The notes beneath the pieces are model-generated. The model saw nothing but the letters and a program-made list of their open reading frames with translations. It had not been told where the DNA came from and did no database searches. 64,000 bases of DNA, taken from positions 1 through 64,000 of IMG/VR virus record IMGVR_UViG_3300036828_000615. One strand, 5' to 3'. The position numbers and the translations under genes were made by a program. The stretch comes from a virus (lineage: Duplodnaviria > Heunggongvirae > Uroviricota > Caudoviricetes). Below are positions 3,695 through 51,627 of the stretch, piece by piece (position 1 is the first letter of the stretch; every line of letters begins with the position of its first letter).

Positions 3695-3846
3695 GCCATA
3701 CCTGCCCCGTTCGGGTACGCGGCATCCGCGCTGATGGTCGGCCAGGGCGCCGGATCCGACCACCACCCGACTACATCTGGCGCTGCCCTGAATGCGCGCA
3801 GGGCTGGCACTACACCGCCGAGGAAGGTTGGCAGAAAATACCGTGA
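3691..3846 (+). CDS. small zinc-ribbon protein (51 aa)
   Basis: GTG start overlapping the upstream stop. Product has C...C...CPEC. Its TGA overlaps the GTG of the next gene (GTGA). Confidence 0.4.
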   Translation: MSHTCPVRVRGIRADGRPGRRIRPPPDYIWRCPECAQGWHYTAEEGWQKIP

Positions 3847-4325
3847 GCGACATCTTCGAGGACACCCCGGAGACCGACGAGTCCATCGCCTGGGTCAAGC
3901 GACCGGTCAACACCCGTACCATCCGGTCGACCCATGAGTACAAGACCGCACGCGAGCAGTACCGGCTGAAGTGTTCCGTGCACCGCCAGCCCGATGGAAC
4001 CAAGGGCGATCCGTGTGTGATTTGCGGCGAGCGTGTGGACTACAACCTCAGATATCCCCACCCGTTCTCCTGGTCGCTCGAGCATTTGATCTCTGTCAAG
4101 GACCGTCCTGATCTACTGCTCGACGAGAACAACTGGGCCAGTGCCCATTTCGGGTGCAACTCCATGAAGGGCGATGAGGAGTTGGTGCCAGATACTGGGT
4201 CGCCCTCCGAGCTGTGGATCTGGTTACCTCTGGTAACATCTGGTAGTTTTTGGCTATGGAACATGCTGCTGAGCAATGGCGCGGTGTCGTTGGCAGGGAA
4301 GATTATTACGAGGTCAGTAGCTTAG
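3843..4325 (+). CDS. HNH-family nuclease-like protein
   Basis: Motifs CVICGERVDYN...SLEHLISVKD...NWASAHFGCNSMKG. The start is uncertain (GTG 3843 or ATG 3792). Confidence 0.5.
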   Translation: MSDIFEDTPETDESIAWVKRPVNTRTIRSTHEYKTAREQYRLKCSVHRQPDGTKGDPCVICGERVDYNLRYPHPFSWSLEHLISVKDRPDLLLDENNWASAHFGCNSMKGDEELVPDTGSPSELWIWLPLVTSGSFWLWNMLLSNGAVSLAGKIITRSVA

Positions 4326-5014
4326 GGCGCGTCCGATCGGTGTCGCGCACTATCCATCGCCGTGCACGGAATTACGCCCAGAACGGGCGGGTTGTAGTCC
4401 AGTATCTTCCCTCTGTTGTGATGGCTCAGCCGCCAGATGAACAGGGACGCCCTTGTATAACCCTGAAAGCCGGCGGCCCGATGGTGCACACGCGTGTTTG
4501 CCGTCTCGTGGCCGAGGCTTTTCTAGGCCCTGCTCCTGACGGAACAGAGGTCTGCCATTTTCCCGACCGCAGTGTTATGAACAACCGCGTCGAGAACCTG
4601 CGTTGGGATACCCGCCACGAAAATAACCTCGACCAGGTCCGGCATGGAACTCACCGCAACGCCAGGAAGGCAAGATGTAAATTTGGCCATCCTTTTGACG
4701 GTGTCACGAAGGATGGCCGGCGGTTCTGTCGCAGATGCGCCGCAGATAAGGACCTAGAGAGGCGCGCCCTCCGTAATCACTTGCTGCGCGTGCAACGGCG
4801 ACGCGGTAAACCGTCACAGTGCGAACGCTGCGGCCGCACTGCACCGGGACGATACGAGTGGGTCAACATGACAGGAGATCTCCTCAAGGATGAGGACTAT
4901 GTCCGGATGTGCGCGGCGTGTCACCGCTCCTTTGACCGCGAGCGCAACGGTGTTGATGAGACTCTGGAACCAAAGCGCGAAAAATGGAGGGCTTACTACT
5001 ATGCCCGGCAGTGA
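4250..5014 (+). CDS. HNH homing endonuclease (NUMOD4 plus HNH_3)
   Basis: Motifs YYEVSSLGRVRS and HFPDRSVMNNRVENLRWDTRHENNLDQ. The C-terminus is Cys-rich. Confidence 0.8.
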   Translation: MAMEHAAEQWRGVVGREDYYEVSSLGRVRSVSRTIHRRARNYAQNGRVVVQYLPSVVMAQPPDEQGRPCITLKAGGPMVHTRVCRLVAEAFLGPAPDGTEVCHFPDRSVMNNRVENLRWDTRHENNLDQVRHGTHRNARKARCKFGHPFDGVTKDGRRFCRRCAADKDLERRALRNHLLRVQRRRGKPSQCERCGRTAPGRYEWVNMTGDLLKDEDYVRMCAACHRSFDRERNGVDETLEPKREKWRAYYYARQ

Positions 5015-5292: not shown

Positions 5293-5531
5293 TACGCGGG
5301 TTCGTCCTCGACCGCGACGAGGACATCAGCGGCGTCAGTGGGACGGGCATCATCGCCGAAGGTGTGGTGTTCTCCGACGGCACCGCCGTGCTGCGCTGGA
5401 CCTGTGAACACACGTCGACCGCCATCTACGACAGCGTCGAGGAACTCATGGCCATCCACGGCCACGGCGGTACTACCCGGCTGCAGTTCCTCGACCGCCC
5501 TGGACGATCTTCACCGTCAGCTCCCGACTGA
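5286..5531 (+). CDS. hypothetical protein (81 aa)
   Basis: GTG start overlapping the upstream stop. Its 3' end overlaps the convergent gene 5473..5688 by 59 nt. Confidence 0.45.
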   Translation: MVIRGFVLDRDEDISGVSGTGIIAEGVVFSDGTAVLRWTCEHTSTAIYDSVEELMAIHGHGGTTRLQFLDRPGRSSPSAPD

Positions 5532-5688
5532 TCCCCACCTGTTTCGCCAGGGTGGTGTAGGAGTAGTCGCCGCTCGCGTAGAGCTGGCAGATCGCCCGGT
5601 CCCGCTGCGCACGGTAATGGCCCGCGAGGTGCACGTGCTCGGAAACTTTCCGGTGACATTCGCGGGCCTGAGCAACGAGACTATCCAT
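5473..5688 (-). CDS. small sigma-70 region-4-like HTH DNA-binding protein (71 aa)
   Basis: Motif YSYTTLAKQVGISRELTVKIVQ. ATGA overlap with the upstream HNH gene. This is the last gene of the minus-strand Ro60 operon. Confidence 0.5.
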   Translation of the reverse strand: MDSLVAQARECHRKVSEHVHLAGHYRAQRDRAICQLYASGDYSYTTLAKQVGISRELTVKIVQGGRGTAAG

Positions 5689-6215
5689 CAGCGCCCCAGA
5701 TGCTGCTCCACAGCGAGCCGAGCAGCGGCTTCCGTTAAATAACTGCCGAGATAGAGCTTCGGTTTGGGGATCGTCACGAATGCATACCATCGGTCAGTGC
5801 GACCAGTTCGCTTGTAGCGATAGACCGTCCACCCTACCGAGTGACCGTCGAATGATTCGTGACATGGCTTGCAGCGCGGCTGGTAATACTGCGGGTCCGC
5901 GCTGTATCGCTTGCCCTCCTCGATTAACTCATTGAGATCGCTGTGGTCATAAGACCATTCGAGCGCCAGGCCACCACAATCAACACAGAGGTGGAGGGTG
6001 GCGTTGCCGCGTTCCCTTCTCACTCTGACGTGAGCGCCGTTGTACCCGATGTTGTCTCCGCGCCATTGCGAATGTTCGACACCGCGCGGCAGTGGCCGCT
6101 TTTCGATCGAACCGTGCTTGCGTATTCGCAGATAGTGCATCTGGCAGTATCCGCCCACATGAACGCGTTTCGAGCACCCCTCTACGCGACAGATAGACGG
6201 CCACTTCCAACCCAT
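5688..6215 (-). CDS. HNH endonuclease with zinc-finger and AP2-like domain
   Basis: Motifs CRVEGCSKRVHVGGYCQMHYLRIRKHG and WYAFVTIPKPKLYLGSYLTEAAARLAVEQH. ATGA overlap with rsr. Confidence 0.8.
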   Translation of the reverse strand: MGWKWPSICRVEGCSKRVHVGGYCQMHYLRIRKHGSIEKRPLPRGVEHSQWRGDNIGYNGAHVRVRRERGNATLHLCVDCGGLALEWSYDHSDLNELIEEGKRYSADPQYYQPRCKPCHESFDGHSVGWTVYRYKRTGRTDRWYAFVTIPKPKLYLGSYLTEAAARLAVEQHLGR

Positions 6216-7913
6216 CAGATTCGTCCACCTGCGAAATCCGAAAGAACGGCCGGTACGTTGGCGTCGAAGCCCGCTATGTCCATCTGCGATGGATCTGTCA
6301 TGTCGGCGATAGACGTGCCGGTCGCGGTGATTGATACGACCGCGAACTTAACGTCGTGGCCGACAAATTCCCGATACGTCTTCAAAGACTGATGTGGATG
6401 GATTTGTCCGAACCAAGTTTCATTGTCGGTATAAATTTGGATCGCGCCGACGTCCAGCTTGTTCTGCATCGCCCACAGCATCGGCAACGCGCAGTCCGTA
6501 CGCCCGAAGCCCAGCGCCGCCATGTAGGAGCACACGTCGTCCAGGCGCCGACGCGGCGTGATGTCCAGCCGACTCGCCACGGAATTGCCGCTCATCCAGC
6601 CGCCGTACCCACCGTGGGAACGCCCGTCGGAGAAGCCGATCACGTCGGCGCCTTTCTCCACGTTGAGCGTCACCAGGCTCATCGCGGCACAGACCTCCCG
6701 GCAGGAGAGCGGCAGGCCCGAGGCCGGGGAGCCCATCGACCCGCTCACGTCCAGCGCCAGCAGCATCGGCACGCCCGAGGGTTCGACCGCGCCGTAGGAC
6801 AGGTAGAAGCCGGTATCCAACGCGTCGGTGATGCGCGGCGTGGGCGTCCAGGTGGAATCGCCGGTCACGCTGCGCCCCGAGGCGTAGGTGCGCTGGGCCA
6901 CCAGCACGTTGATCGGATGGATGCGCCCGCGCTTGAGCGCCGCCGCATCGGTCAGCTGGTTGGCTACCACCAGGCCGACCTTGGAGGTGGTCAGCCCCAG
7001 CCGGGTCAGCCGGGGCAACTGGCGCATCAGCGCCGTGGCCGGCAGTCCCTTGGCGATCAGCGCGTCCCAGATGTCGGGCTCGTTGACCAGCCGGTCGGGC
7101 AGCATCTCCCACGACACGTCGTGGGCGGTGATCAGCCGCACCGCGCCCGCCTTGGTCGCGGTCTGCAGCTCGATGAACGCACTGACCAGATCCGGCAGCG
7201 CCGTGTCGCTCTCGGAGAGCCAGGTCCGGTAGTGCTTCTCCCGGTGACCGGCGTTGACCCGCGCGACCCGCTCGTCGTCGCGCCCGGTCATGGTGTCCAC
7301 GATGTAGCGGTAGAGATTGTCGCGCAGTTGATCGTTGGGTGCCGGGTGGCTCAGCGCCAGCAGGTCGGCGTGGCGCCAGCCCTCGCGCTGGCGGTACTTG
7401 AGGATCTGATACGCCAGCTTGTCCACGGCGCGCCCGTTGTACCAGCCCGCGACGGCGCGCTTGAGCCCGCGGCCCCAGCCACGGAACTGCTCGACGTAGG
7501 ACGCGAACAGATACATGTGCGTGCCGGTGCGGATCACCTGCGGCAGCGCCCCCAGCGCGTAGGCGCGCCCGGCGTCATCGGCCATCGAGGCCGCGATCGC
7601 CAGCGCGAAGATGGCAGGGTTGGCCCGCGGGGCGCGACCGGCCACGGAGATCTCGGTGATCAGGTCCACCAGGGCGACCGGGTCGGTCTGCGCCAGGTTG
7701 ACGACGACCTCGGCGTTCTCCCGCGTCAGCTGGGGGGCCTTGGTGTAGTACGTTCCGCCGGAACTTCCAAGGACGATGAACCGACGCGCGCGTGCCATGT
7801 CGTCGATGGCGAACACATGGCCGCCGGCGGCGTTCTTCACCGTGGCGCCGCCGGCAGGCTGCGACTGCGGCGTGGAGCGGGTGGAAAATCCCTTCAGTAC
7901 GTCGGGCATATGT
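6215..7913 (-). CDS. rsr: Ro60/Rsr orthologue (TROVE domain plus C-terminal vWA domain)
   Basis: The N-terminus MPDVLKGF...FIVLGSSGGTYYTKAPQLTRENAEVV...VAGRAPRANPAIFALAIA matches Ro60 (human FLCFGSEGGTYY...QEGRTTKQEPMLFALAIC). The vWA motif LALDVSGSMGS is present. RBS aaggagatacATATG. The start is at 7913 rather than the track's 8014. Confidence 0.9.
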
Positions 7914-7932
7914 ATCTCCTTTGTATTTAGTT

Positions 7933-8009
7933 GGGACGCGAGCGAAGTAGTAACGGACCGGATGGTTTTCCATGCAAGGGAGATAACCGATCTGTAATCG
8001 GCTCGCGAC
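7933..8009 (-). ncRNA. Y-RNA-like ncRNA unit 6 (stem only, about 77 nt)
   Basis: Terminal stem CGCGAGC...GCUCGCG. Carries the 5' motif CCGAUUACAGAUCGGUUAUCUCCC and the 3' motif GGUCCGUUACUACUUCGCUCGCG. Its 3' end lies about 19 nt upstream of the rsr start. Confidence 0.55.
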
Positions 8010-8020
8010 AACATCTCTAG

Positions 8021-8157
8021 GGTGACGAGCGAAGTGTTGCGACCGCGATTTAGTTGCTCTGCCAGGCTGAGCTACACCCCGGCCAGGCCGAGGTGACGGG
8101 ATTTGAACCCGCGACCCACTCCTCCACAAGGTAAGCGACCGCATCCGGCTCGTCACC
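8021..8157 (-). ncRNA. Y-RNA-like ncRNA unit 5 with tRNA-like module
   Basis: Terminal stem GGUGACGAGC...GCUCGUCACC. Interior has a T-arm GUCGCGGGUUCAAAUCCCGUCACC and a D-arm-like GGGGUGUAGCUCAGCCUGGCAGAGC. Confidence 0.6.
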
Positions 8158-8167
8158 GAAGTCTGAA

Positions 8168-8240
8168 GGTTGCGAACGAAAGGCGACGACCGCCCGTTTA
8201 CGATTAACAGTCGATAAGCGATCCTCATCGGCTCGCAACC
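8168..8240 (-). ncRNA. Y-RNA-like ncRNA unit 4 (about 73 nt)
   Basis: Terminal stem GGUUGCGA...UCGCAACC with motifs CGAUGAGGAUCGCUUAUCGAC and CUUUCGUUCGC. Confidence 0.5.
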
Positions 8241-8249
8241 AATGTCTGG

Positions 8250-8376
8250 GGCCTGAGCGAAGGATGAGGCTCCGGAGAAACCGGGGCTTCGGTCCCGGCT
8301 GGAGGGTTCTTCTGCCCTCCCGATACTTCGGCCTTGCGGCCTGGCGAAGATAACCGAAATCTCGACGGCTCAGACC
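8250..8376 (-). ncRNA. Y-RNA-like ncRNA unit 3
   Basis: Terminal stem GGUCUGAGCC...GCUCAGGCC with motifs GAUUUCGGUUAUCUUCGCC and CAUCCUUCGCUCAG. Three internal hairpins. Confidence 0.5.
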
Positions 8377-8389
8377 GTCAATGCTTGAG

Positions 8390-8528
8390 GTGGGAAGCGA
8401 AGTAGTTGACGGCCCGAAAGTGCCTTAGGCCACTTGGCTACGCGGCAGGATTGGTTACCTGGCCGCGACGGGATTCGAACCCGCGTTCTCTTTTCTGGGA
8501 GATAACGGACCATCGGCCGGCTCCCCAC
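8390..8528 (-). ncRNA. Y-RNA-like ncRNA unit 2 with tRNA-like module
   Basis: Terminal stem GUGGGGAGC...GCUUCCCAC. Motif GAUGGUCCGUUAUCUCCC. T-arm GCGGGUUCGAAUCCCGU, acceptor-like CGCGGCC, and D-arm-like GUAGCCAAGUGGCCUAAGGC. Confidence 0.6.
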
Positions 8529-8542
8529 CATGAAATCTTTCA

Positions 8543-8673
8543 GGACGCGAGCGAAGTGATGACCACCGGGTTGCCGCCTCGCGGCGGCGCTCTTTATACC
8601 GGCCGAGGCCGGCACTTGGGATCGAACCAAGGTAACCATGTTGAGGTAACCGATGCTCGGACGGCTCGCGTCC
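8543..8673 (-). ncRNA. Y-RNA-like ncRNA unit 1 with T-arm-like hairpin
   Basis: Terminal stem GGACGCGAGC...GCUCGCGUCC. Motif CAUCGGUUACCUC. Hairpin CUUGGUUCGAUCCCAAG. Confidence 0.55.
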
Positions 8674-8772
8674 TATGAAGTTCTCAAACAACAGCCTTCT
8701 GTATACGCCGGTACACACCCGCGGCACAAGCCATTAACGGCGTGTCGCTGATTTACCTCTACCGGCCCTGGC

Positions 8773-9162
8773 ATGATGATTACCGTGGCGGAGGAGAACT
8801 GGATGCCGGTGGGTAGCTTCGGCGGAGCCTACGCGCAGGCATACGAGGTTTCCGATCGCGGCAACGTCCAGTCGATCCCGCGTCATCGCCGCGGTCGGCA
8901 GAACTCCACCCGCAAGGTCAACGGCCGGGTGCTCTCGCCGCGCGTCCGCGACAACGGCGTGCAGGCGGTCAACCTCTGGCACGAGAACGAGTACAAGCAG
9001 GTGCCGGTGAAGGTCCTGGTGCTCGAAGCATTCGTCGGCGAGTGCCCGGCGCACCATGAAGCGCGCTGCCTCGACGGCAACGAGGCCAACCTGGCGCTGG
9101 GCAATCTCGCCTGGAAGCCCGCGGGCGGGCTGGCAGTGCTGCATGAGCGGCTGAGCCGATGA
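8773..9162 (+). CDS. HNH endonuclease (NUMOD4 plus HNH_3)
   Basis: Motifs AYEVSDRGNVQSI and HHEARCLDGNEANLALGNL. Confidence 0.75.
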   Translation: MMITVAEENWMPVGSFGGAYAQAYEVSDRGNVQSIPRHRRGRQNSTRKVNGRVLSPRVRDNGVQAVNLWHENEYKQVPVKVLVLEAFVGECPAHHEARCLDGNEANLALGNLAWKPAGGLAVLHERLSR

Positions 9163-10238: not shown

Positions 10239-10687
10239 TGCGCAGCTATGAGGAGATCTACGCCACCGCCCGCGACGAGCGGCCGTTCTCCAACGGCACC
10301 GAGGGCTACGCCTGGATGGAGAACTGGTGCTGGGCGCCGTGTCACAACCCCGCCGAATTGGCGTGGCAGCGTTACGAGAACGGCGAGCGCAAGACCGCGC
10401 CGAAGGACTTCCCCGGCGGCTGCCCGCTGATCCTGTGCGCGCTGATCGGTCGCACCCCGACTGAGTGGATCGACACCTGGGACGGCGAGGGTCCGTACCC
10501 GCTGGGCGATAGGTTCCACTGCATCGAATACAGGGGACCAGACGACGGCCCCGGCGGGGACCCCCAGCCACGACCCCGCCGGGAGCCGCCCAATATGGAC
10601 GGATTGTTCGAGCGGCCGGAGCGGACGGTGCGGATGCTCAAGGTGGCTGAACCGGTAAGTCAAGAGCGTGTCGGTGCCCGGCGTTAA
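10238..10687 (+). CDS. hypothetical protein (149 aa)
   Basis: TGATG overlap. Product contains WMENWCWAPCHNP. Confidence 0.6.
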   Translation: MRSYEEIYATARDERPFSNGTEGYAWMENWCWAPCHNPAELAWQRYENGERKTAPKDFPGGCPLILCALIGRTPTEWIDTWDGEGPYPLGDRFHCIEYRGPDDGPGGDPQPRPRREPPNMDGLFERPERTVRMLKVAEPVSQERVGARR

Positions 10688-12692
10688 GGTGCGGGCCGTG
10701 CCTAGAAGGCGCTTCAGCAGCCGAGAGCGAACCGCGCTCTACCTCGCGGCCGATGGTCACTGTGAGGACTGTGGAGTCCGTCTGGAGCCGAGTTGGCACT
10801 CTGATCACGCCATCCCTTACTCGTTTGGTGGACCCACGAATGTTGTCAATGGCCGGGCACTGTGTCGGGCCTGCAATCTAAAGAAAGGGAACAAGATGGA
10901 CGGACTTTACGATTGGCAGCGCCAAGCGGTCGATAAGTTTCGCCGAGCAGTCAACCCTCGCCGGTTCCTGCTCGCGGCATTCCCAGGTATGGGCAAAACG
11001 AGATGCGCAGTCTCGATCCTTGAATCCACTGGCCGGTTCGGGATCATTCTTGTGCCGCAGGCTGACGTGGTTTCCCACTGGCGCAAGTGGCTACATCCCC
11101 ATCTCCCGCCAGCGAAAGTCACTACCGACGGCATTAGCCAACTCTGCCCTTGTGGCTGCCGACGTAAAGCCCGTTCAGCGGTTATGACATACGCTTTCGC
11201 AGCCGCTAATCCGCATATCCTTGCGACAATTTATCGCCAGCATGGCCCCTGCCTACTGATCTGCGATGAGGTTCACCACCTCCGTCGTGAGCGGTCATGG
11301 TCAGCGGCGATAATTAGCGCCTCCCCGTTCATCGACATGGTTCTCGCCTTATCCGCCACCCCGTTCCGTACCGACGAGGAGCCTGTTCCTTTCGTTCACA
11401 CCGAAGGGCCGTGGTCAACTGAGATCAACCTGATAACCGAGGATTACATCGCGGAGTACGGCTACGGGGCTGCGCTGACAATGGACCCGCCGCCGGTGAC
11501 CCGAGCGGTGTTCGAACGGTACGACGCGGACGTTACGTGGCTTGAAGCCGACATTGATGGCGAGGTGGAGAAGCAAGCCACATTAAGTGGGGAGCACGCG
11601 GTCGAGGTCGCCCGTAAGGCTCGCCGACATGCGATCGACGCTCGGGGTGACTGGCTCAACCGCGTTCTGATAAGCGCGGACGACAAGCTCGTATCTCTCA
11701 GGGCAGATGACCCCAGGGCAGGAGGGGTCATTATTTGTCGTGACACGAACCATGTGGTCGCGACCGCGAATCTACTTCTCGGTATCGGCACGGAAGATAT
11801 CGCCGTCTATACCCAGGACTACGCGACAACCAGTCACCGGCTCGGTGATGGCCGAATTCTCGATAACGGGACACGGTCAGGTCACCGACCAAGCCAAGAC
11901 GTTTTATCGGCATATATGGACGGCACCGCTAAATGGATCTTGACCGTTCGGAAGCTAAGCGAGGGGGTCGACGTTCCTCGGCTCCGAGTCCTGGTTTACG
12001 CGACGGTCGTCCGAACTCGGCTGTTCTTCATCCAGGCCGTGGGCCGTGTCGTCCGGGTTAGATGGGATCTCAATGTTGGGGTTGATCAAACCGCATGGAT
12101 CTACATCCCAGATGACCCGGTTACCCGAGGGTACGCAACCGAGATCGAAAACCTAGTGGCCGACGCGGAGATCACCGCCTATGAGCAGGACGAGGACGAG
12201 AACACCGAGGGAGGTCTCCCTGAGAGGTCGTCGGAGTCGTCGGAGGTGTTCGACAGGTTCGTCAGCGCCGAGGGTGAATACGCTGGCATGACATCAGGAG
12301 GGTCCGCCCATGATCCTCAGTTAGCTAAGCTCGCCGCCGAACTCGGTGGATCGGTAGTCGGCAATTTAGATGTGTTGCACAAGCTGAGCCGTCTCGGGCT
12401 ACTTAATCTGACGAACGATGATCCACCTCCACCTGATCACGACCCGGTTGATCCGATGGTTGTGTTCGCCACTAAGGTCAAGCAGAAGAATCAGGCCGTG
12501 AAAGCCTGGGCATCGCTGCGGCTTCGTCGAGAGGACTTCCCCAGCTACGGGGACTCGATCAGGTCGTGTAACCGAGATCTAGGTGAGCTATTTGGTGTCT
12601 GGGCGGAAAATCGGAACGTGAGCGCCGACCAGGTTGAGAAGGCAACCCAGTACGCCCGGGAGCAGATCAAGCGGCTACGCGGTCGTGGATGA
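10668..12692 (+). CDS. HNH nuclease domain fused to an SF2 DEAD/DEAH-type helicase
   Basis: N-terminal HNH (CEDCGVRLEPSWHSDHAIPYSFGGPT...NGRALCRACNLKKG), Walker A FPGMGKT, and motif II LLICDEVHHL. Confidence 0.8.
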   Translation: MSVPGVKVRAVPRRRFSSRERTALYLAADGHCEDCGVRLEPSWHSDHAIPYSFGGPTNVVNGRALCRACNLKKGNKMDGLYDWQRQAVDKFRRAVNPRRFLLAAFPGMGKTRCAVSILESTGRFGIILVPQADVVSHWRKWLHPHLPPAKVTTDGISQLCPCGCRRKARSAVMTYAFAAANPHILATIYRQHGPCLLICDEVHHLRRERSWSAAIISASPFIDMVLALSATPFRTDEEPVPFVHTEGPWSTEINLITEDYIAEYGYGAALTMDPPPVTRAVFERYDADVTWLEADIDGEVEKQATLSGEHAVEVARKARRHAIDARGDWLNRVLISADDKLVSLRADDPRAGGVIICRDTNHVVATANLLLGIGTEDIAVYTQDYATTSHRLGDGRILDNGTRSGHRPSQDVLSAYMDGTAKWILTVRKLSEGVDVPRLRVLVYATVVRTRLFFIQAVGRVVRVRWDLNVGVDQTAWIYIPDDPVTRGYATEIENLVADAEITAYEQDEDENTEGGLPERSSESSEVFDRFVSAEGEYAGMTSGGSAHDPQLAKLAAELGGSVVGNLDVLHKLSRLGLLNLTNDDPPPPDHDPVDPMVVFATKVKQKNQAVKAWASLRLRREDFPSYGDSIRSCNRDLGELFGVWAENRNVSADQVEKATQYAREQIKRLRGRG

Positions 12693-36429: not shown

Positions 36430-39400
36430 TTACATGTAGGCGCGGATCCAGACTCCACCATCGCCACCCTTACCGCCAGGACCTGCGGCCAGCGCGTTGA
36501 AGTAACCCCAGATACCACCGCCGCCACCGCCGCCCGGAGCGTTCCCGTTGGCGCTGGCGGCGGGTTGTGCTCCACCGCCGTAGTAGATCCCGGCGTAACC
36601 GTCGGCACCCGTCAAGGGCTGGTTACCGGGTGAGAGCCCGGTAGTGGAGCCTGCTGCCGAGGAGCCGCCATTGGCGGTGATGGTGGTGTGCCCGGTCATG
36701 GCCACCTGCGATTGCGCGCCCGCACTGCCGCTGGGAAAGCCACCGCCGCCAGCACCGCCTATCCCGCCCGCGCCGATGGTGACGGTGAAGCTGGTGGTGC
36801 TGGTGGGGATGTCAACGCCATAGACGAGGGTCACCGGCGTCGCCCAGATTCCGGCACCACCGCCGACACCGTTGGACGGACCGCCGCCGCCCTGCCCGCC
36901 CATGCCCGCGCCGACCACCAGGATGTCGAAGTGGTTTCCCGCTTTCATCCACGACGGGACGCTGTAGGTGTAGGAGCCCGCCGCCGCGTACTGCGTCACA
37001 AGTGGTGCATAGGTCGTGGCCGCGGCCGCGCCGGACAGCGCCATCCATGGCACGGTCTGCGACCAGGTGGGGCTGGGGATGCTGCTGGGCGGCGCGGCCG
37101 GTGCCGGGTTGAGCGGGACGGCGACCGAGCCCCAGGACGCCGCCGACGAGAGCGTCGCCGAGATGGTGACGCTCGCCGCCCCCGCCGCGTCACCCATCAC
37201 ACACGAGCCGTAGCTGCTGGCACCGCTGGCGACGTTTTGGCGCTGAGTTTGGTTGTAGGCGCTCAACGTCAGAGACACGTTTGCCTGCACCACGCCGAAC
37301 ATCTGGACGATGCGACCACCTGTCGCACCGCTGGTCACGGTGTGTGACGGCGCTGCCGTTGACCCGTTTGCTGTTTGCGCCGTGCCGAACGACGCGACGT
37401 TCGTGTACGTGTCGACACCGACGCTGAGGTAGGCGGCGTCACTGGCGAGCGGGTTCGGTGTTGCGGTGGTGGTAATGGTCTGTGCCCCGGTGGGCGGGTT
37501 GATCAGCCCATACAGGGCCACGGTAGAGCAGACCCCGCCGACGGGACCGTACTGATACACACCGAGCTGGGCGAGGGTTGTGCTGCCGATCTTGCAGGAA
37601 ATCGTCGGTGCGCTAGTGGTGTTTGCTGCCGTGACGACGGTGACTCCGACGACAAGCGCGGTCGCGGTGGCGGCGATGGTGACATTGGTGTTCTGGGTGG
37701 CTGCCCCCGCGACCGCAACGTTGGTTCCAGCCGGGGCAGCGTCGATGGCGATGGTCCCGGCGCTGATGGCCCGCGTGACGGCGAGTTGCTTCGGGTACGC
37801 GGTGGGGTGGCCCGCGCTGGGCAGCCAGGCGTGGTTGATCCCGGCGAGGCTATAGGTGCCGGTGCCCGCGATGACCACCTCCATGGCGTAGTAGGTGTTC
37901 TGCTGCGCGGTGAGGTAGTTGGCAGCCGGGATCGCGAGGTTGACCCAGGTCGGCGACGATCCACCGAGAGTGATGTTGCCCACGACATTAGGTGACGCGT
38001 ACACCAGGGTCAGCGCCCCGGTGGAGCCGTTCATCGAGTAAATGTTGTAGTAGACGCCGGTGATGGTGGCCGGACCGTAACCCAGCCACTCCACGCTCTG
38101 CTTGACCCCGGCATCGGGGGTGCCGATGATTCCCATCGCGCTCTGGGCGGCGGTGACCGAGACGGTGGTGGCCGACGACGAGCCGCTAATGCTGGACAGC
38201 GGAAACACCGAATCGGCGGTGGGGTCGATCGCGTTGTAGGACGGCTTGGTCACCGCCCGGTTGTTCAAGCTGGTCTGGTTGGTGCCGGTGGTACCCGCGA
38301 CCGAGTTGGTGGGCGGCGTGGTCTGATTGCCGAAGTTGAACCCGAGGTAACCCATCGCCTGGTTGAACACCGACGCAAGCTGGCCGACCGCGTTGCCGCT
38401 GCCGGTACCACCCGTGACGCCCTGGATGGTCTTGTCGACAGTGGACTGAAACGCCGTGGTCACGTCGGTCAGCACGCCACCGATAGGGCTCTGCACATTA
38501 AGCCCAGGGATGAAGCTCCCCAGGGTGGGCTGGCTGTAGATCCTGGTCATCATGTCCTGCAGCCCGGCGAACAGGGAGCTGACCGGGTTGCCGGTGTTGG
38601 TACTACTGGCTGGGGTGCCGTTGATCGGGATGGCTATGCCGCCCCACAGGCTCGACGTGGTGCAGGAGAAGTTGACGCTGGCCGCGCCGGGTGCGTCGCC
38701 GATCACCAGCGGAAGCCCGGCCCCGGCGGTGAACGGCTGGTTGGACCGCTGCGTCTGATTGAACCCGGTGAGGTTGGTCGCGTATCCGCCGAACGCCGCC
38801 ACCACCCGGTCGTAGGAATTGGTGCCGCTCACCGTCAGGGACGGCGTGGTGTTGGTTGAACTGAAGGCGGTGACGGGAGTGCCGAACGACACCGCGCTGC
38901 TGAAGGACTCGGAGTTGATGGACATCGCTACAGAGTTCGATGCCGACGCATAGATCTGCTGGACTCCGGTGGGTGCGTTCTGCAGGACGAACGCAAAGAG
39001 GTAGAGGACGGGCGCCGAAGAATAGCTCACAGAGGCGACTTGCGTCATCAGCGGGCCGGACGACCCACCGATCCTCACGGTGAGAGTGCCTGGCGTATCG
39101 TACGTCGACACGAACACCACGGCGTTCGGGCCGGTGATGGTGTGGTTCTCGGTGACGACCGTGCTACTTAATTGGACACCGGCACCGACCGCGTCGAAAA
39201 CCACCGGAATAGCCGGTCTGCTCGCCCCGTACAGACCTTGGCTGAACAGGTCGGTGAGTGACTGGGCGTGGGTTTCCTCCACGCAGCGGACGTCGTCTAA
39301 GTAGTAGGTTTGGGCACCGGCATTCTGGCCGGAGAATCCGACTATGCCGCACGCTATATCGTATCCAGGGGGAATCTGCACCCACCCGGACATCTTCATC

Positions 39401-42400
39401 CACCCGGTTGTGGAAATCGCCGTAAAATTGACCGACTGCGCCCAGATGCTCGTTTGGACAGATCCGCCGGAGGCGTAATTAACGACGAAAACTCCGAGAT
39501 AGGCGCCTCCAGTCGTTGTGGTGTTGGTGGATTTGGCCCTGATGTACAGCTCGATGTTGAACCATTGTCCCGGCTGGCATCTCGTCATCGCGTCATAAAG
39601 CTGTGTTGTGACGGGGGTGGTGGGCGCAAAGAACACAACGTCGTACTGGGTGGATACGTCCGTGGAGGTCTGGACGGAATACGAATGAGTCCCGCTGTGT
39701 GCCTGGGCGGTCGTGTAGCCGAACGCCGCATCGACAGGGGTTCCGTAGCTGCCGGTGAAGCGCGTGACCGTGGTGTCCTCGAAGTCCGGGGAGAGCACCA
39801 GGTTGGTTCCGGAAGCCCTTGCGGCCTGCCACAGCGTCTGCGGCAGCAAGCCCGGCGACATCGCGTTGGCGAATGTGCCGGTGATGATCTTGGTGGCGTC
39901 CAGGCCGGGGATCCAGTTGGCGTTGGTGATGGCGTCGGTCAGCCTGCTGCCGCTCAAGCCACCCAGCCATGTCGAGGTCAGGGCCGGGATGATGTTCTGG
40001 TCGGTGATGGCCCCGGTCAGCCGGGTGCTATGGATGGTGTTGGTCCACGCGGAGGTGAGGGTTGGTATCCAGTTCTGGTTGGTGATGGCGCTGGACAGTT
40101 GGCTGCCCGCCAATGTCGCGGTGGTGATGGCGTTACGCAGCAACCCGCCGTCGACAGTGTTCACCCACGCCGACGTGAGGGCGGGGATGAAGTTCTGATT
40201 CGTGATCGCGGACGTGAGCTGGCTGCCCGCGATGCCGACGGCGACGTTGATGGCACCGGTCAGTAGGCTCCCATGGATGGTTCCGCCCCAGGTAGAGGTG
40301 AGCGCCGGTATCCAGTTCTGATTGGTGATGGCCGAGCCCAGTAGGTTGCCGGCGATCGTCTTGCCCCATGCCGAGGTCAAGGCCGGGATGACCGTCTGAT
40401 CGGTGATGGCACCGACGAGCTTGCTGGCGTGGAAGCTGTTGACCCAGGTGCTGGTCAGCGCCGGAATGATGTTTTGATCCGTGATGGCACCCAGCAGTTT
40501 CGCGCCGCTCAAGGTGCCCACCCACGTCGAGGTGAGCGCGGGAATGACGTTCTGGTCGGTGATCGCCCCGAACAGTTTGGACGCGTGAAGGGAGTTGACC
40601 CACGTGCTGGTCAGGGCCGGGATCACGTTCTGGTCCGTGATCGCGCCGACAAGCTTGGAGGCGTGGAATGTGTTGATCCAGGTCGAGGTCAGCGCGGGAA
40701 TGATGTTCTGATCGGTGATAGCCCCGGTCAGCCGCCAGCCGTGAATGGTTCCCGTCCAGGCGCTTGTCAGGGCCGGGATGATGTTCTGATCTGTGATGAG
40801 GCCCAGCAGCTTGCTGCCACTGAGAGTGCCCAGCCAGGTGGACGTCAAGGCCGGGATTACGTTCTGGTCGGTGATCGCGCCGACGAGCTTGGAAGCGTGA
40901 AAACTGTTGATCCATGTGCTGGTCAGCGCCGGGATGATGTTCTGGTCGGTGATGGCCCCAGTGAGCCGCCAGCCGTGGATGGTGCCGGTCCAGGCCGAGG
41001 TGAGCGCGGGGATGATGTTCTGATCGGTGATGAGACCGAGCAGCTTGCTGCCACTGAGGGTTCCGAGCCATGTCGACGTCAGCGCCGGTATGACGTTTTG
41101 GTCAGTGATGGCTCCGAACAACTTGGAGGCGTGTAGCGAGTTCACCCAGGTTGATGTCAGGGCGGGGATCACGTTCTGATCCGTGATCGCCCCGACGAGC
41201 TTGGAGGCGTGGAAGCTGTTGATCCACGTCGAGGTCAGCGCCGGAATGATGTTTTGATCGGTAATGGCCCCGGTCAAGCGCCACCCGTGGATCGTGCCCA
41301 GCCACGCGGACGTGAGAGCCGGGATCACGTTCTGATCCGTGATGAGACCCAGCAGCTTGCTGCCGCTCAGAGTGCCCAGCCACGTGCTGGTCAACGCGGG
41401 GATGACATTCTGATCGGTGATCGCACCGAACAGCTTGGAGGCGTGCAACGAGTTGACCCAGGTCGAGGTAAGCGCGGGAATGATGTTCTGATCGGTGATA
41501 GCCCCGGTTAGTCGCCACCCATGAATGGTCCCCAGCCACGCAGAGGTGAGGCTGGGGATGATGTTCTGGTCCGTGATCAGGCCGAACAGCTTGGACGAGT
41601 GAATCGAGTTGACCCATGTGCTGGTCAGGGCCGGGATGATGTTCTGATCGGTGATGGCGCCCAGGAGCCTGCTGCCGTGCAACGTCCCGAGCCATGAGGA
41701 CGTCAGGGCCGGGATGTGCAGCTGGTCGATGAGCTTGGTGATCGGGTCCATCGGGGCCAGCAGGTTGGCCGGATGAAGCATGTTGGTGATGAACGTGTTG
41801 ATCGCGGTCGTCACATCGAACGCGACATCGGAAAGGGTTGGCAGGCCCAGCATCGCGGTCAGGTTGCTGAAGTAAACGCTGGGGTCCAGCATGTTGTTGA
41901 CGAAGTTGTTGATCGCGTTCTCGATATCGAACGAGACATCTGCCAACGTGGGCAAGCCCAGCATCTCGGTGAGATTGTGGAAGAACGTGTCCAGCTGGGT
42001 GACGTTGAGGATGCCGCCCAGGCCGACCGAGTTGAGGATGGCCTGCAGGATGTCCTGCTGCGCCGAGGTGTCGATCACCGCGATGTCGTCGATGTAGACG
42101 ATGTCGCCGGTGGGGATGTCGCTCTCGAAGCGCAGGACGAAGTCGGCACTGTCGTAGTTGTAGGTGCTGGGCACGGTGACCTTGCCGCGCATCCAGGTCC
42201 ACTGGCCCGGTGTGGGCATCGTGATACGGGTGGCGCTCACCTCGGAGCTGGGGTCGGAGCCGCTGGACTCGGTGGCGATCATCACCAGGTCGAGATGCCC
42301 GGTGCCGGCGGTGGTGGTGGCCGTGTCGGGCCAGACGAACGCCTCGACGTCGAAGGTCTGCCCGGACTTCACGTACTGGGTCAGCGGACCCACCTGGTTG

Positions 42401-43251
42401 CGCAGCAGATGCCCGTCGCGGGTGGTGCCGTCCGCGGTGATCTTCATCGAGTGCGTGCCGGTGCGCGCGTGGTCGGTGGACTGCGTGCCCATGATCGCGC
42501 CGGGCCACACCAGCGTCGTCTCGAAGCTGGGGTCGAGCACCAGGTTCAGGCCGGTCCGCCAGTGCAGCATGAACATGTCGAAGCCGGTCAGCAGGTTCGT
42601 CGGCATCAGTTGGTGCTCAATGAAATTGATGATCGACGCGCCCGCATCAGTGAGGTCGGACAGCCAACCGGACGGGTTACCCAGGAAGGCGTAGAAGAAC
42701 CCGAACAGCTTCTGCACTTCGTCGTAGGATGCGGTCCCCGCCCCGAAGCCAAACGCGTTCATGATCGCGTCGATCAGGGACTGGACTGCTTCGGTCCCCC
42801 CGGCGATCAGGTCCAGCGCCAGGTTCTCCAGCGGGATGAACCCGGTCACGCCGCCGGAGTGGGTGGCGTCGGATACCAGTGTCGCCAGCAGGTTGCTCGG
42901 CTTGAGCATGTCCTCGATGAAGGTGACGATCGCGCCCACCGGATCGAAGTTCGGGTCCAGCGGGTTGAGTTCACCCAGGAATGTCCACAGGTTGGAGAAC
43001 ATCGAGGTGAGCTTGCTCCAGTCGGCGTTGAGCGTGGTGATGTCCACGCCGGGGAACAGGCTGCCGATGATCTTATCCACGATCGCCTGCAGCGCGTCCC
43101 AGATGACCTGGGCGGTGTTCTTGCCCAGCTTGCCGATGACGTCTTCGACACCCTGGTCGATCTGCTGGAGTGGATTCTTGTCGACCTTGAACAGGTTGGT
43201 GCCGGTCGCCGGGACTTGCCCGGAGAACAGGTCGATCGCGCCGAAGGCCAT
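36430..43251 (-). CDS. giant minor tail protein (2273 aa): about 23 tandem 26-aa repeats, CBM-like modules, Gly-rich C-terminus
   Basis: Repeat ITDQNIIPALTSTWVNSxHASKLFGA. N-terminal repeats of type F(I/V)xxML.P.NLL. C-terminal GGGGPSNGVGGGAG...GGGGGGGIWGYF. Confidence 0.85.
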   Translation of the reverse strand: MAFGAIDLFSGQVPATGTNLFKVDKNPLQQIDQGVEDVIGKLGKNTAQVIWDALQAIVDKIIGSLFPGVDITTLNADWSKLTSMFSNLWTFLGELNPLDPNFDPVGAIVTFIEDMLKPSNLLATLVSDATHSGGVTGFIPLENLALDLIAGGTEAVQSLIDAIMNAFGFGAGTASYDEVQKLFGFFYAFLGNPSGWLSDLTDAGASIINFIEHQLMPTNLLTGFDMFMLHWRTGLNLVLDPSFETTLVWPGAIMGTQSTDHARTGTHSMKITADGTTRDGHLLRNQVGPLTQYVKSGQTFDVEAFVWPDTATTTAGTGHLDLVMIATESSGSDPSSEVSATRITMPTPGQWTWMRGKVTVPSTYNYDSADFVLRFESDIPTGDIVYIDDIAVIDTSAQQDILQAILNSVGLGGILNVTQLDTFFHNLTEMLGLPTLADVSFDIENAINNFVNNMLDPSVYFSNLTAMLGLPTLSDVAFDVTTAINTFITNMLHPANLLAPMDPITKLIDQLHIPALTSSWLGTLHGSRLLGAITDQNIIPALTSTWVNSIHSSKLFGLITDQNIIPSLTSAWLGTIHGWRLTGAITDQNIIPALTSTWVNSLHASKLFGAITDQNVIPALTSTWLGTLSGSKLLGLITDQNVIPALTSAWLGTIHGWRLTGAITDQNIIPALTSTWINSFHASKLVGAITDQNVIPALTSTWVNSLHASKLFGAITDQNVIPALTSTWLGTLSGSKLLGLITDQNIIPALTSAWTGTIHGWRLTGAITDQNIIPALTSTWINSFHASKLVGAITDQNVIPALTSTWLGTLSGSKLLGLITDQNIIPALTSAWTGTIHGWRLTGAITDQNIIPALTSTWINTFHASKLVGAITDQNVIPALTSTWVNSLHASKLFGAITDQNVIPALTSTWVGTLSGAKLLGAITDQNIIPALTSTWVNSFHASKLVGAITDQTVIPALTSAWGKTIAGNLLGSAITNQNWIPALTSTWGGTIHGSLLTGAINVAVGIAGSQLTSAITNQNFIPALTSAWVNTVDGGLLRNAITTATLAGSQLSSAITNQNWIPTLTSAWTNTIHSTRLTGAITDQNIIPALTSTWLGGLSGSRLTDAITNANWIPGLDATKIITGTFANAMSPGLLPQTLWQAARASGTNLVLSPDFEDTTVTRFTGSYGTPVDAAFGYTTAQAHSGTHSYSVQTSTDVSTQYDVVFFAPTTPVTTQLYDAMTRCQPGQWFNIELYIRAKSTNTTTTGGAYLGVFVVNYASGGSVQTSIWAQSVNFTAISTTGWMKMSGWVQIPPGYDIACGIVGFSGQNAGAQTYYLDDVRCVEETHAQSLTDLFSQGLYGASRPAIPVVFDAVGAGVQLSSTVVTENHTITGPNAVVFVSTYDTPGTLTVRIGGSSGPLMTQVASVSYSSAPVLYLFAFVLQNAPTGVQQIYASASNSVAMSINSESFSSAVSFGTPVTAFSSTNTTPSLTVSGTNSYDRVVAAFGGYATNLTGFNQTQRSNQPFTAGAGLPLVIGDAPGAASVNFSCTTSSLWGGIAIPINGTPASSTNTGNPVSSLFAGLQDMMTRIYSQPTLGSFIPGLNVQSPIGGVLTDVTTAFQSTVDKTIQGVTGGTGSGNAVGQLASVFNQAMGYLGFNFGNQTTPPTNSVAGTTGTNQTSLNNRAVTKPSYNAIDPTADSVFPLSSISGSSSATTVSVTAAQSAMGIIGTPDAGVKQSVEWLGYGPATITGVYYNIYSMNGSTGALTLVYASPNVVGNITLGGSSPTWVNLAIPAANYLTAQQNTYYAMEVVIAGTGTYSLAGINHAWLPSAGHPTAYPKQLAVTRAISAGTIAIDAAPAGTNVAVAGAATQNTNVTIAATATALVVGVTVVTAANTTSAPTISCKIGSTTLAQLGVYQYGPVGGVCSTVALYGLINPPTGAQTITTTATPNPLASDAAYLSVGVDTYTNVASFGTAQTANGSTAAPSHTVTSGATGGRIVQMFGVVQANVSLTLSAYNQTQRQNVASGASSYGSCVMGDAAGAASVTISATLSSAASWGSVAVPLNPAPAAPPSSIPSPTWSQTVPWMALSGAAAATTYAPLVTQYAAAGSYTYSVPSWMKAGNHFDILVVGAGMGGQGGGGPSNGVGGGAGIWATPVTLVYGVDIPTSTTSFTVTIGAGGIGGAGGGGFPSGSAGAQSQVAMTGHTTITANGGSSAAGSTTGLSPGNQPLTGADGYAGIYYGGGAQPAASANGNAPGGGGGGGIWGYFNALAAGPGGKGGDGGVWIRAYM
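39900..41725. repeat. 78-bp tandem coding repeats with higher-order (3-unit) organisation
   Basis: At least 22 near-identical 78-bp units encoding the 26-aa repeat. Three sub-types recur in order: VNSLHASKLFG / LGTLSGSKLLG / LGTIHGWRLTG. Confidence 0.85.
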
Positions 43252-50451: not shown

Positions 50452-51627
50452 TCACCGGCTCCGCTTAAACCTTTGTGGGATTATGGCGACTATCACTCCG
50501 TTGGGGTCGCTGTGCGCCACCGTCAGGTTGGTCACCGTCTGCGGTGGTACAGCAAACATAAATTTATTATTCCACTGAAGCTGCAGCGGAACGCCCTGGT
50601 TGGCGATGCCGGACAGGAAGAAGTCCAGCACCATCGACTGCCGGATCAGGTCGAACACCAGGGAGTCCTTCGGATCGGCCGCCGAGGTCAGGGTGCGCTT
50701 GGAGGGCTCGGTGTCACACAGGTAGGTGCCCATCGAGGGCGCGGTCTGCGGCAGCGCCACCAGCCGGGTCGAGTCGTTGTCCTGCACAATGGCCTGCCCG
50801 GGACTGGACACCAGAAAGCTCACGTAGCTCGGCAGGTCGCCGCGGTTGGCGATCGGCAGGGTGCCCCAGTAGAACTCGCTCATCCCGGTCAGCTCGTCGA
50901 CGAACGTGACCAGCCCGCTCAGGATGCCCCCGCCCTGCGGGTAGACCTTGGGCGGGCCGGCGTTGGCCGCCGAGAACGTCTTGTACAGCGAGGGCTTGGT
51001 GAAGTACGGGCGCGCCGCCAGCCAGGTGATGTCCCACTGGCTCGCGTTGTTGCCGTAGGCGACCGGGTCGATCTTCTGCGCGCTCTTGACCGTTTCCTGC
51101 GGGCGCACCGGAATCCAGCGCCAGCCCGAGTAGCGCGTGTAGACGCCCATCCAGCCGTCGTTGGCCTCATCCTGGCCGGCCCACCAGTTGTCCTCGGCCA
51201 GCCGGTACTGGTACTCGGTCATCGGCGGAGCCTGGGTGCCCACGATGATGCCCAGGTCGAACTGACGCTCGGGGATGTTCTGGCGTTCGATACTGGCGCC
51301 GAACATGTAGGGGCTGTTGACCAGCACCTGCTTGAAGGGCCACTGCTGATCACCCTGCAGCTGGGTGGCCAGCCGAACCCCCTCACGGCCCTTGTTCGGC
51401 CCGGCCAGGTTGAACACCCGGGACAGGTCGGGCACCAGGTACACCAGGTGCGTCATCATGCCGCGCACCTGCGGCGGCAGCTGCAGGAAGCTCACCGGTG
51501 CGACCAGCTCGGGGAGATAGGCCGTCGAGTAGCTACCCTGCGGCCAGTTCGTCTGCACCCCGCCGACGGTGACCAGCCGGGGGGCGATGGCGGCGCGGGT
51601 CATGCCACGCGGGCGCGAAGTGGTCAT
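50452..51627 (-). CDS. minor tail protein (distal-tail-like, 391 aa)
   Basis: ATGA overlap with the TMP stop. Lies immediately downstream of the TMP. Confidence 0.7.
   Translation of the reverse strand: MTTSRPRGMTRAAIAPRLVTVGGVQTNWPQGSYSTAYLPELVAPVSFLQLPPQVRGMMTHLVYLVPDLSRVFNLAGPNKGREGVRLATQLQGDQQWPFKQVLVNSPYMFGASIERQNIPERQFDLGIIVGTQAPPMTEYQYRLAEDNWWAGQDEANDGWMGVYTRYSGWRWIPVRPQETVKSAQKIDPVAYGNNASQWDITWLAARPYFTKPSLYKTFSAANAGPPKVYPQGGGILSGLVTFVDELTGMSEFYWGTLPIANRGDLPSYVSFLVSSPGQAIVQDNDSTRLVALPQTAPSMGTYLCDTEPSKRTLTSAADPKDSLVFDLIRQSMVLDFFLSGIANQGVPLQLQWNNKFMFAVPPQTVTNLTVAHSDPNGVIVAIIPQRFKRSR

Follow-up and report, generated by a model that had tools for sequence, protein, structure and literature searches.

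A six-unit array of Y-RNA-like elements in the rsr leader of an uncultured actinobacterial phage

The virus record IMGVR_UViG_3300036828_000615 (IMG/VR; Caudoviricetes) was analysed over positions 1 to 64,000, the whole of this stretch being referred to below as the window. It carries rsr, the gene for a Ro60 (Rsr) orthologue, preceded on the minus strand by six tandem units (U1-U6; 8673..7934, 740 nt) that fill the rsr 5′ leader and share the stem-bulge-stem-loop plan of Y RNAs. The anatomy of the array, its conservation, the covariation of its stems and its tight linkage to rsr are direct observations and are set out first. Rather than a new kind of system, the locus presents a known one in expanded and diversified form, and it very probably represents the phage version of the bacterial Rsr/Y-RNA system, in which array, rsr and the gene for a small helix-turn-helix (HTH) protein form one transcription unit.

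Anatomy of the array and of rsr

An original prediction made for this DNA had described six consecutive same-strand Y-RNA-like units with a conserved closing stem, and this was borne out, with the array and rsr in the same orientation, as had been proposed; the strand given there needs correction, all of them being on the minus strand. In the order of the leader, with letters for the unit types matched across contigs (see below), U1 (type A; 8673-8543, 131 nt) carries a lone T-arm hairpin CUUGGUUCGAUCCCAAG and two further hairpins, while U2 (type B; 8529-8389, 141 nt) has a T arm GCGGGUUCGAAUCCCGU, a long acceptor-like hairpin and a variant D arm (GCC-AAGUGGCCUAA-GGC), which we take to be like the D arm of tRNAs with a long variable arm. 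U3 (type C; 8377-8249, 129 nt) contains several hairpins and no tRNA-like part and is followed by U4 (type E; 8240-8168, 73 nt), a minimal unit of stem 1, bulged C, stem 2 and loop. U5 (type D; 8157-8021, 137 nt) has a T arm and an acceptor-like hairpin of 7-8 bp, then UA and a D arm (GCUC-AGCCUGGCA-GAGC), and U6 (type F; 8010-7934, 77 nt), a minimal stem-loop, is the last before the rsr ribosome-binding site. The T, acceptor and D modules predicted for U2 and U5 and the lone T arm predicted for U1 are present, with the T arms of all three units and the D arm of U5 reading as previously quoted. The predicted minimum unit size of 73 nt stands and the predicted maximum of 138 nt does not (141 nt), while the spacers, put at 9-21 nt, measure 13, 11, 8, 10 and 10 nt in order from U1 to U6, a range of 8-13 nt.

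All units begin with six variable bases, GAGCCG, 9-10 bases and (G/C)(G/C)UUAYC, and all end with UUCG(C/U)U(C/U) and then six bases that complement the initial six. Their shared module also shows UUAYCU after the second stem and CUUCGYUC at its 3′ side. As expected from the 8-10-bp terminal stems of the original prediction, 8-10 of the 10 terminal positions pair in each unit (10/10 in U1 and U2, 9/10 in U3), followed by a bulged C and then a G-C pair. The common plan of the six comprises a stem 1 of 9-10 bp closing in GAGC/GYYC, the bulged C, then G-C, G-U and A-U pairs, an internal loop, stem 2 (..UCGG/CCGG..), with the ..UCGG of the conserved CGGUUAYC as its 5′ strand, and a variable interior. 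Folding, which had been suggested as a check, returned this closing stem in each unit and a greater stability than that of its own shuffles (z -2.3 to -3.7, the lowest being U1 at -3.7). Of the composite 5′ motif there are six copies in the array and one elsewhere in the window (both strands, 128 kb), and no open reading frame (ORF) overlapping the array passes a filter for coding sequence based on third-position G+C (GC3).

The rsr gene (6215..7909, minus strand; stop 6215-6217) encodes 564 aa from an ATG at 7909, the start codon being read from the sequence. This replaces the 566 aa from 7913 given earlier, and the product is identical to database protein P0001, which comes from a JGI metagenome contig of 86.9 kb and has the JGI annotation '60 kDa SS-A/Ro ribonucleoprotein'. 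The protein is established as a Ro60/Rsr orthologue, as had been claimed, with a TROVE domain (Pfam, 140.8 bits, cutoff 23) followed by vWA_Ro60 (168.9 bits, cutoff 27.7) and matches in the Protein Data Bank (PDB) to 2NVO (D. radiodurans Rsr, E 1e-99) and 1YVP (Xenopus Ro60, E 6e-86). It carries GRAPRANPAIFALAIA together with GSSGGTYY, the TROVE motif quoted in the earlier work. Only 24 nt separate U6 from the rsr start codon, with the ribosome-binding site AAGGAG (7921-7916, minus strand) inside them, making co-transcription of array and rsr plausible. All six units are encoded on the rsr strand, 25-764 nt upstream of the rsr start, in line with the 4-kb rule for bacterial and phage Y RNAs; a survey located YrlA no farther than 4 kb from rsr, and on its strand, in 254 bacteria and 22 phages (Chen et al., 2014; PMC4201824).

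Match to known RNA families

A lenient Rfam search with E-value reporting (E<=10) was run over 7850-8800 (951 nt). U5 matched the YrlA family (RF02553) over its full length (model 1-114, 46.5 bits, E 4.7e-9), with all four helices aligned and the T arm, acceptor-like hairpin and D arm in the correct places. U2 gave a partial match of its T/acceptor/D part at 22.5 bits, so that neither unit reached the YrlA gathering score of 69 bits, and the orthologues of U5 in related contigs scored 39-55.5 bits on the same model. The covariance-model matches on U5 and U2, although below the gathering score, agree with the YrlA-type tRNA mimicry suggested for this array, that on U5 being full-length and that on U2 partial. 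U5 has the tRNA-like module that defines YrlA, with T arm, acceptor-like stem-loop and D arm set on the Rsr-binding stem; in U2 the order of the arms is kept and the D arm is different. U5 is accordingly of YrlA-like architecture with a diverged sequence, and the other five units stand outside any curated family. Over the same interval U3 gave an insignificant match to Deinococcus_Y_RNA (RF01053; 22.2 bits, E 0.26, cutoff 80), tRNA-Sec was matched at 19.6 bits (E 0.5), and there was no match to the metazoan Y_RNA model (RF00019) at E<=10 or to the Rfam tRNA model.

In one related contig (L141) the Rfam tRNA model (cutoff 29) matches the 5′ half of a unit of the U2 type (2366-2428) at 34.3 bits, with an acceptor stem of 7 bp, a reduced D arm, a T arm and CUGCAAA as an anticodon-like loop in the alignment. 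This tRNA-like fold excludes the YrlA-like fold, because the strand CGCGGCC is used by both. In U2 of the window the alternative acceptor stem has only 5 pairs.

Conservation and covariation among relatives

Rsr proteins 62-77% identical to that of the window are encoded on uncultured contigs of up to 165 kb. In the relatives compared at the DNA level, which do not include P0003, P0004 and P0009 from among the closest, the 550-1060 nt upstream of rsr are left gene-free by gene callers and are filled with similar units, five in L001, L002, L060 and L061, in L062 and L063 and in L003, five to six in L057, six in L141, L142 and L144, six to seven in L140 and seven in L145. The unit types can be matched across contigs in a nearly constant order, A, B, C, D, E, (G), F, where A has a T arm only, B is a variant tRNA mimic, C is long, D is YrlA, E and F are short and G is sometimes present; in the window the order is A B C E D F.

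Ten arrays supplied 51 units whose terminal module was aligned without gaps, the register being set by the invariant UUCG (alignment A1). In this alignment 90.8% of cells pair, and sliding the 3′ partner by 1-3 columns lowers pairing to 40-47%. Double-sided changes were found in 101 cells against 26 +/- 3.9 in shuffles that ignore relatedness, none of 500 shuffles reaching 101, and at stem positions 2-6 each of the five pairs occurs as four to six pair types. The alignments of individual types likewise hold compensatory changes, with 44 consensus pairs of which 15 are compensatory and concentrated in the acceptor-like stem for type D (U5; seven homologues, A2), 42 and 14 for type B (U2; eight orthologues, A3), 27 and 11 with the T stem included for type A (U1; eight first-position units, A4), 27 and 11 for type C (U3; seven orthologues, A5), 20 and 8 for type E (U4; seven orthologues, A9) and 15 and 4 for type F (U6; nine last-position units, A10). 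The terminal stems, for which a check of covariation had been proposed, were in this way found to covary both among paralogues and in homologues. An encoded CCA tail after the terminal stem was considered as a general rule and rejected, being present in only 14 of the 51 units.

The core of the terminal stem behaves differently on its two strands. The 5′ strand is GAGC nearly everywhere, with GGGC in L003 and most bacteria, while the 3′ strand is GCUC in the window and L140 (a few units having GCUU or GUUC), GCCC in L001, L144 and L057, where it gives an A·C mismatch, GUUC in L062, L141, L143 and L145, and GCCU in L003. The 3′ strand of this Rsr-binding core is near-uniform inside one genome and different between genomes, and since the unit types predate the split of these phages the pattern is one of concerted change. 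The change is confined to the binding helix and may be due either to selection by the phage's own Rsr or to local gene conversion.

Specificity and linkage to rsr

For a covariance model (R1) the 5′ and 3′ modules were taken from 45 units of other contigs, the window contributing no sequence, and R1 was run unfiltered over the whole window. Its four best matches were U6, U4 and the 5′ halves of U5 and U3 (E 2e-8 to 9e-4), with U6 (41.8 bits, E 2.4e-8) and U4 (34.4 bits, E 1.8e-6) matched over their full length and the 5′ half of U3 scoring 23.7 bits; the window holds no match outside the array with E < 0.1. A single covariance model for all units was given up, R1 being partial on U3 and U5 and yielding weak fragments on U1 and U2. 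Its weakness on the long units is due to their large interior, and alignments were therefore made type by type.

The 5′ motif was also scanned for at 225 rsr loci from viral, metagenomic and genomic collections, upstream being taken as within 1.3 kb on the same strand. The 259 kb upstream of rsr hold 515 copies against 29 in the other 2.75 Mb, a density some 190-fold higher. Counted by this motif, which gives a lower bound, bacterial genomes have 0-5 units per rsr locus (mode 2) and viral or metagenomic loci 0-6, and a fuller scanner gave the highest count of 7 units in L145. Six units are also found on the viral contigs L017, L044 and L049, with Rsr 40-47% identical to that of the window. Among isolated phages Catera has three units, Cashline and Sparky two each and Sixama one to two. 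Multiple units are the rule in Actinobacteria and the clade of the window is at the top of the range. The multiplicity had been put forward as unexplained by the standard description, a view that no longer holds, two to four units being common upstream of actinobacterial and phage rsr and six or seven being the maximum. No description of arrays of at least five Y RNAs was found in the literature searched, which leaves out most subscription-journal papers.

At least two Y RNAs each are reported in Salmonella, M. smegmatis and D. radiodurans, with more to be found, and the 2014 survey remarks that partners other than YrlA escape discovery by bioinformatics (PMC4201824). The GenBank records of the isolated phages named above have no Y-like units annotated. 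In Catera (L226, 1603-1990) there are three unannotated Y-like units, one of them YrlA-like, and in Cashline (L227, 1695-1990) two, both YrlA-like.

Signals upstream of the array and between units

A promoter-like block (8700..8729, minus strand) lies upstream of U1, with TTGTGC (8729-8724) and TATACA (8705-8700) separated by 18 nt. The arrangement TTGCNC-N15-18-TATACA is conserved upstream of the first unit in most of eight aligned arrays (A7), and we treat it as promoter-like only, its putative function being read from the sequence. An ECF (extracytoplasmic function)-type GGAAC...CGTT promoter noticed by eye was dropped, its spacing being too long and variable.

Directly 5′ of U1 lies the leader TTTGAGAACTTCATA (8674..8688, minus strand), with 11 invariant columns across the eight arrays (A7), and a near-invariant TTTGAGAACTTCATAGG precedes the first unit in most of them. 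The spacers between units resemble weaker copies of this leader. At a guess, leader and spacers may be a processing signal with a role at the 5′ ends of the units.

Neighbouring genes

The gene for the small HTH protein (71 aa; 5473..5688, minus strand) is conserved downstream of rsr and replaces the 105-aa ORF from 5790 of the original prediction; its ATG at 5688 overlaps the stop of an HNH gene. The protein is 53-79% identical to the ORF directly after rsr in five related contigs (A6) and 37% identical to gp36 of Gordonia phage Cashline (L227, 3583-3795), which directly follows the Ro gene. A tblastn search with it gave 101 matches (E <= 1e-3) among 229 rsr loci, 35 of them in bacterial genome loci, and among the matches listed the homologues lie no more than a few hundred bases, or at the most about 2 kb, downstream of rsr on its strand. 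HTH proteins of about 66-72 aa follow rsr, usually directly and in the same orientation, in phages and in at least 35 bacterial genome loci, including Nocardioides, Cellulomonas and Micropruina. The matches to protein families are weak, below cutoff and spread over several Pfam HTH families, so the earlier designation as sigma-r4-like was not upheld. No published link between this protein and Rsr was found in the literature searched. In some relatives a Band_7 protein follows the HTH gene.

Between rsr and the HTH gene the window has an HNH endonuclease gene (175 aa; 5688..6215, minus strand) with matches to PHROG HNH families and phrog_4160. Its G+C content is 57.8% and its GC3 65%, against 67% and 87% for rsr, and an HNH gene is absent from this position in every relative examined. 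The HNH gene can be read as a secondary insertion, probably a free-standing homing endonuclease. CTGATGG stands at both HNH junctions (5686-5692 and 6213-6219, minus strand), with a stop/start overlap TGATG in each, and the pair looks like a duplication, on HNH insertion, of the original junction between the rsr stop and the HTH start. A functional partnership of the HNH protein with Rsr was considered and rejected, given its absence from relatives and its different base composition; the HNH gene, previously counted as part of the system, appears as a lower-G+C insertion seen only in the window.

The block conserved among relatives consists of array, rsr and small HTH protein. In the window the rsr/array block on the minus strand is flanked by plus-strand genes, and five HNH or NUMOD4-HNH ORFs or domains occur in the 7 kb around it (3792-4325, 4250-5014, 8773-9162 and 10668-10900 on the plus strand, and 5688-6215 on the minus strand). 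The NUMOD4 gene divergent from the array has a homologue at the matching place in several relatives (L140, L141, L143, L145). A Pfam search of ten neighbouring ORFs found no RNA-repair or decay partners (RtcB, PNPase and the like). In relatives, a few kb downstream of rsr, there are Pfam matches to Acb5, Sequestin, PTH2 (peptidyl-tRNA hydrolase) and Band_7 (L140 4875-5129; L143 3960-4310; L141 6380-6838; L145 6823-7173), which suggests an accessory or counter-defence neighbourhood; none of the four is matched among the neighbouring ORFs of the window.

The element carrying the array is an uncultured, siphovirus-like actinobacterial phage. The window has a G+C content of 65.5% and encodes an endolysin, several minor tail proteins and a helicase and exonuclease typical of actinobacteriophages. 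Two very large ORFs stand among the minor tail genes (36430-43251, 2273 aa, and 51624-59765, 2713 aa, both on the minus strand). No close DNA relative was found among 50,697 deposited phage genomes, the single match being about 400 nt of a cluster C mycobacteriophage Ro gene at about 72% identity. ARAGORN found no tRNA or tmRNA gene in the 64-kb window. In other phage lineages Y-like units occur within or beside tRNA gene arrays (L050, L051, L057, L004, L228, L229).

Interpretation of the locus

The reading favoured here is that of a phage-borne Rsr/Y-RNA operon. A minus-strand transcript would run from the promoter-like block through six Y RNAs and rsr to the small HTH protein, with a homing-type HNH gene probably inserted later between rsr and the HTH gene. 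The six RNAs would be cut out of the rsr leader, and each would bind the Rsr ring through the shared stem-bulge module. The differing interiors would act as effector modules, linking Rsr to different partners or gating different substrates, with U5 as a YrlA-type mimic, U2 as a variant mimic, U1 contributing a T arm, U3 a multi-hairpin element and U4 and U6 minimal stem-loops. Transcription, processing, Rsr binding and partners of the units are inferred by analogy with the systems studied experimentally. By analogy with Deinococcus, Salmonella and phiLo, the likeliest partner would be the host PNPase, such that RNA decay would be redirected or damped in infection, and the host tRNA-handling enzymes would be an alternative. 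U5 might be cut by RNase P and CCA-tailed like M. smegmatis YrlA, because its 7-8-bp acceptor-like stem is followed by UA and the D arm.

Several points weigh against this reading. At gathering thresholds Rfam returned nothing for the whole window, and the strict YrlA motif GNCGAAN0-1G is absent from all six units, none of which contains CGAA; in its place stand GCCGGAU (U5), GCCGAU (U4, U6), GCCGUC (U1, U3) and GCCGGC (U2), where bacterial relatives have GCCGAAG or GCCGGAG. A scan for the sigma-70 consensus reported no promoter site, the block upstream of U1 having been missed because its TATACA lacks the final T. The 3′ ends of units were picked partly by complementarity, which inflates the percentage of paired cells to an extent limited by the UUCG anchor, and the alignments of single types hold only 7-9 sequences each. 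The partners of the individual effector modules are suggested purely by analogy.

A more far-reaching proposal, which we consider unlikely, is that the array is a set of interchangeable adaptors, types A-G each recruiting Rsr to a different partner, with the tRNA mimics engaging or decoying tRNA-targeting factors. The partner candidates would then be PNPase, other exonucleases, enzymes that process or modify tRNA, and ribosomes, a roster that we hold with the same reserve. If such an adaptor set were true, the genome-specific 3′ strand (GCUC, GCCC, GUUC, GCCU) would reflect co-evolution of the RNAs with their own Rsr.

The array stands in its entirety after the promoter-like block and ahead of the rsr ribosome-binding site, and no terminator-like site divides U6 from rsr. 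This could also be read as one long structured leader in which the units are not separate RNAs and which acts in cis on the translation of rsr or the stability of its mRNA, as it would if Rsr bound its own leader. The loop of U6 in the window shows 86% complementarity to the region of the ribosome-binding site (repeat I2), but the pairing is a weak one (-11.6 kcal/mol, z -1.7) and lacks conservation in eight relatives, and autoregulation through it was rejected on both grounds. M. smegmatis YrlA, likewise encoded 5′ of rsr, is nevertheless a discrete RNA bound by Rsr (PMC4201824), and six diversified modules of conserved types are hard to fit to a single attenuator. A purely cis-acting leader is for these reasons improbable; feedback on rsr besides the released RNAs is possible.

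Less probable still is that the tRNA-like units serve mainly as Rsr-independent decoys of tRNA, directed at anticodon nucleases or at tRNA-modifying or processing enzymes, with the shared stem there for stability only. Such a role would suit the T, acceptor-like and D arms of U2 and U5, the score of the U2-type unit of L141 on the Rfam tRNA model (34.3 bits, above the cutoff of 29) and the Y units within tRNA gene arrays of other phages. However, U3, U4 and U6 have no tRNA-like part and U1 has a T arm only, all four with the same conserved module, that module is found almost exclusively beside rsr, and ARAGORN saw no tRNA in the window. That the units are remnants of a decayed tRNA array or a non-functional intergenic repeat family, as T-arm and D-arm sequences and the tRNA arrays near Ro genes in many actinophages might suggest, is scarcely credible, because decaying sequence would not keep covarying stems, and the types are conserved across phages with Rsr only 51-77% identical, their stems kept by compensatory changes, and the shared module is not tRNA-like.

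Comparison with known systems

The phage-borne Rsr/Y-RNA operon favoured here is closest in plan to the bacterial YrlA/YrlB system. In M. smegmatis YrlA lies 5′ of rsr, YrlA and YrlB co-precipitate with Rsr, and YrlA is cut by RNase P and receives CCA (PMC4201824); recognition by tRNA enzymes (TruB, DusA, RNase P and the enzyme that adds CCA) is described for YrlA of Salmonella and M. smegmatis only (PMC4201824). As in the window, the RNAs of M. smegmatis and other bacteria stand just 5′ of rsr on the same strand and their ends pair into an Rsr-binding stem with a conserved 5′-strand motif. U5 repeats the YrlA succession of T arm, acceptor-like stem and D arm, and U1, like YrlB, has a T arm. 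In contrast, two RNAs are reported there against six in the window, U5 scores 46.5 bits against the YrlA cutoff of 69 and the window units do without the strict GNCGAAN0-1G. The D arm of U2 differs from that of YrlA, its orthologues have an extra hairpin, and U3, U4 and U6 have no reported counterpart.

Cluster C mycobacteriophages such as ET08 share with the window an actinophage Ro gene, with Rsr about 52% identical, and an upstream tRNA-like Y RNA. Only a YrlA-like RNA has been reported in them (22 phages; PMC4201824), although by the motif scan Catera has three units upstream of its Ro gene against six in the window. The window phage, unlike them, is siphovirus-like, and the two are unrelated at the DNA level. 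Thermus phage phiLo has a Ro60 that binds two upstream Yrl RNAs and the host PNPase (PMC12135203; PDB 9KOP, 9L5Y), and tethering to PNPase or its modulation is known in D. radiodurans and Salmonella and for the phiLo Ro60 with its Yrl RNAs (PMC4201824; PMC12135203). As a phage Ro60 with upstream Y-like RNAs, phiLo is the best functional analogy, binding being experimental in phiLo and inferred in the window; it differs in having two RNAs, with no tRNA-like modules described, and a distant protein (E 4.5e-4). D. radiodurans also encodes several small RNAs upstream of rsr, Yrn1 and Yrn2 among them, and the 5′ strand of the Rfam Deinococcus_Y_RNA consensus, GCCGAAG...CGGUUAC, resembles the GAGCCG...CGGUUAYC of the window. 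Its tRNA-like part is differently arranged, however, and U3 reaches 22 bits against the cutoff of 80.

Metazoan Y RNAs (hY1, hY3, hY4, hY5) resemble the units in their terminal helix with a single bulged C in the 5′ strand, their upper stem and their variable loop. The GGUCCGA...GUUAUC of hY1, hY4 and hY5 appears similar to the GAGCCGGAU...GGUUAUC of the window, although the metazoan model gives no match. Metazoan Y RNAs differ in being separate Pol III genes with no tRNA-like module, and no match to RF00019 was obtained at E<=10.

In the literature searched, about two recognised Y RNAs are given for each of the bacteria under experimental study (Salmonella, M. smegmatis, D. radiodurans). Here one short signature, GNGCCG, 4-14 nt and GGUUAYC plus a complementary 3′ arm, marks every unit and yields over 500 candidate Y RNAs, which lie upstream of 225 rsr genes of actinobacteria and phages and include classes that lack any tRNA-like part. 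Phages whose units, five to seven in number, are conserved, ordered and diversified, and in which one Rsr would be paired with several effector modules, make the role of the Y-RNA loop testable, and the small HTH protein is added as a frequent and so far undescribed neighbour of rsr. Set against the bacterial, phage and metazoan systems, the locus enlarges the known Rsr/Y-RNA framework and leaves the framework itself unchanged.

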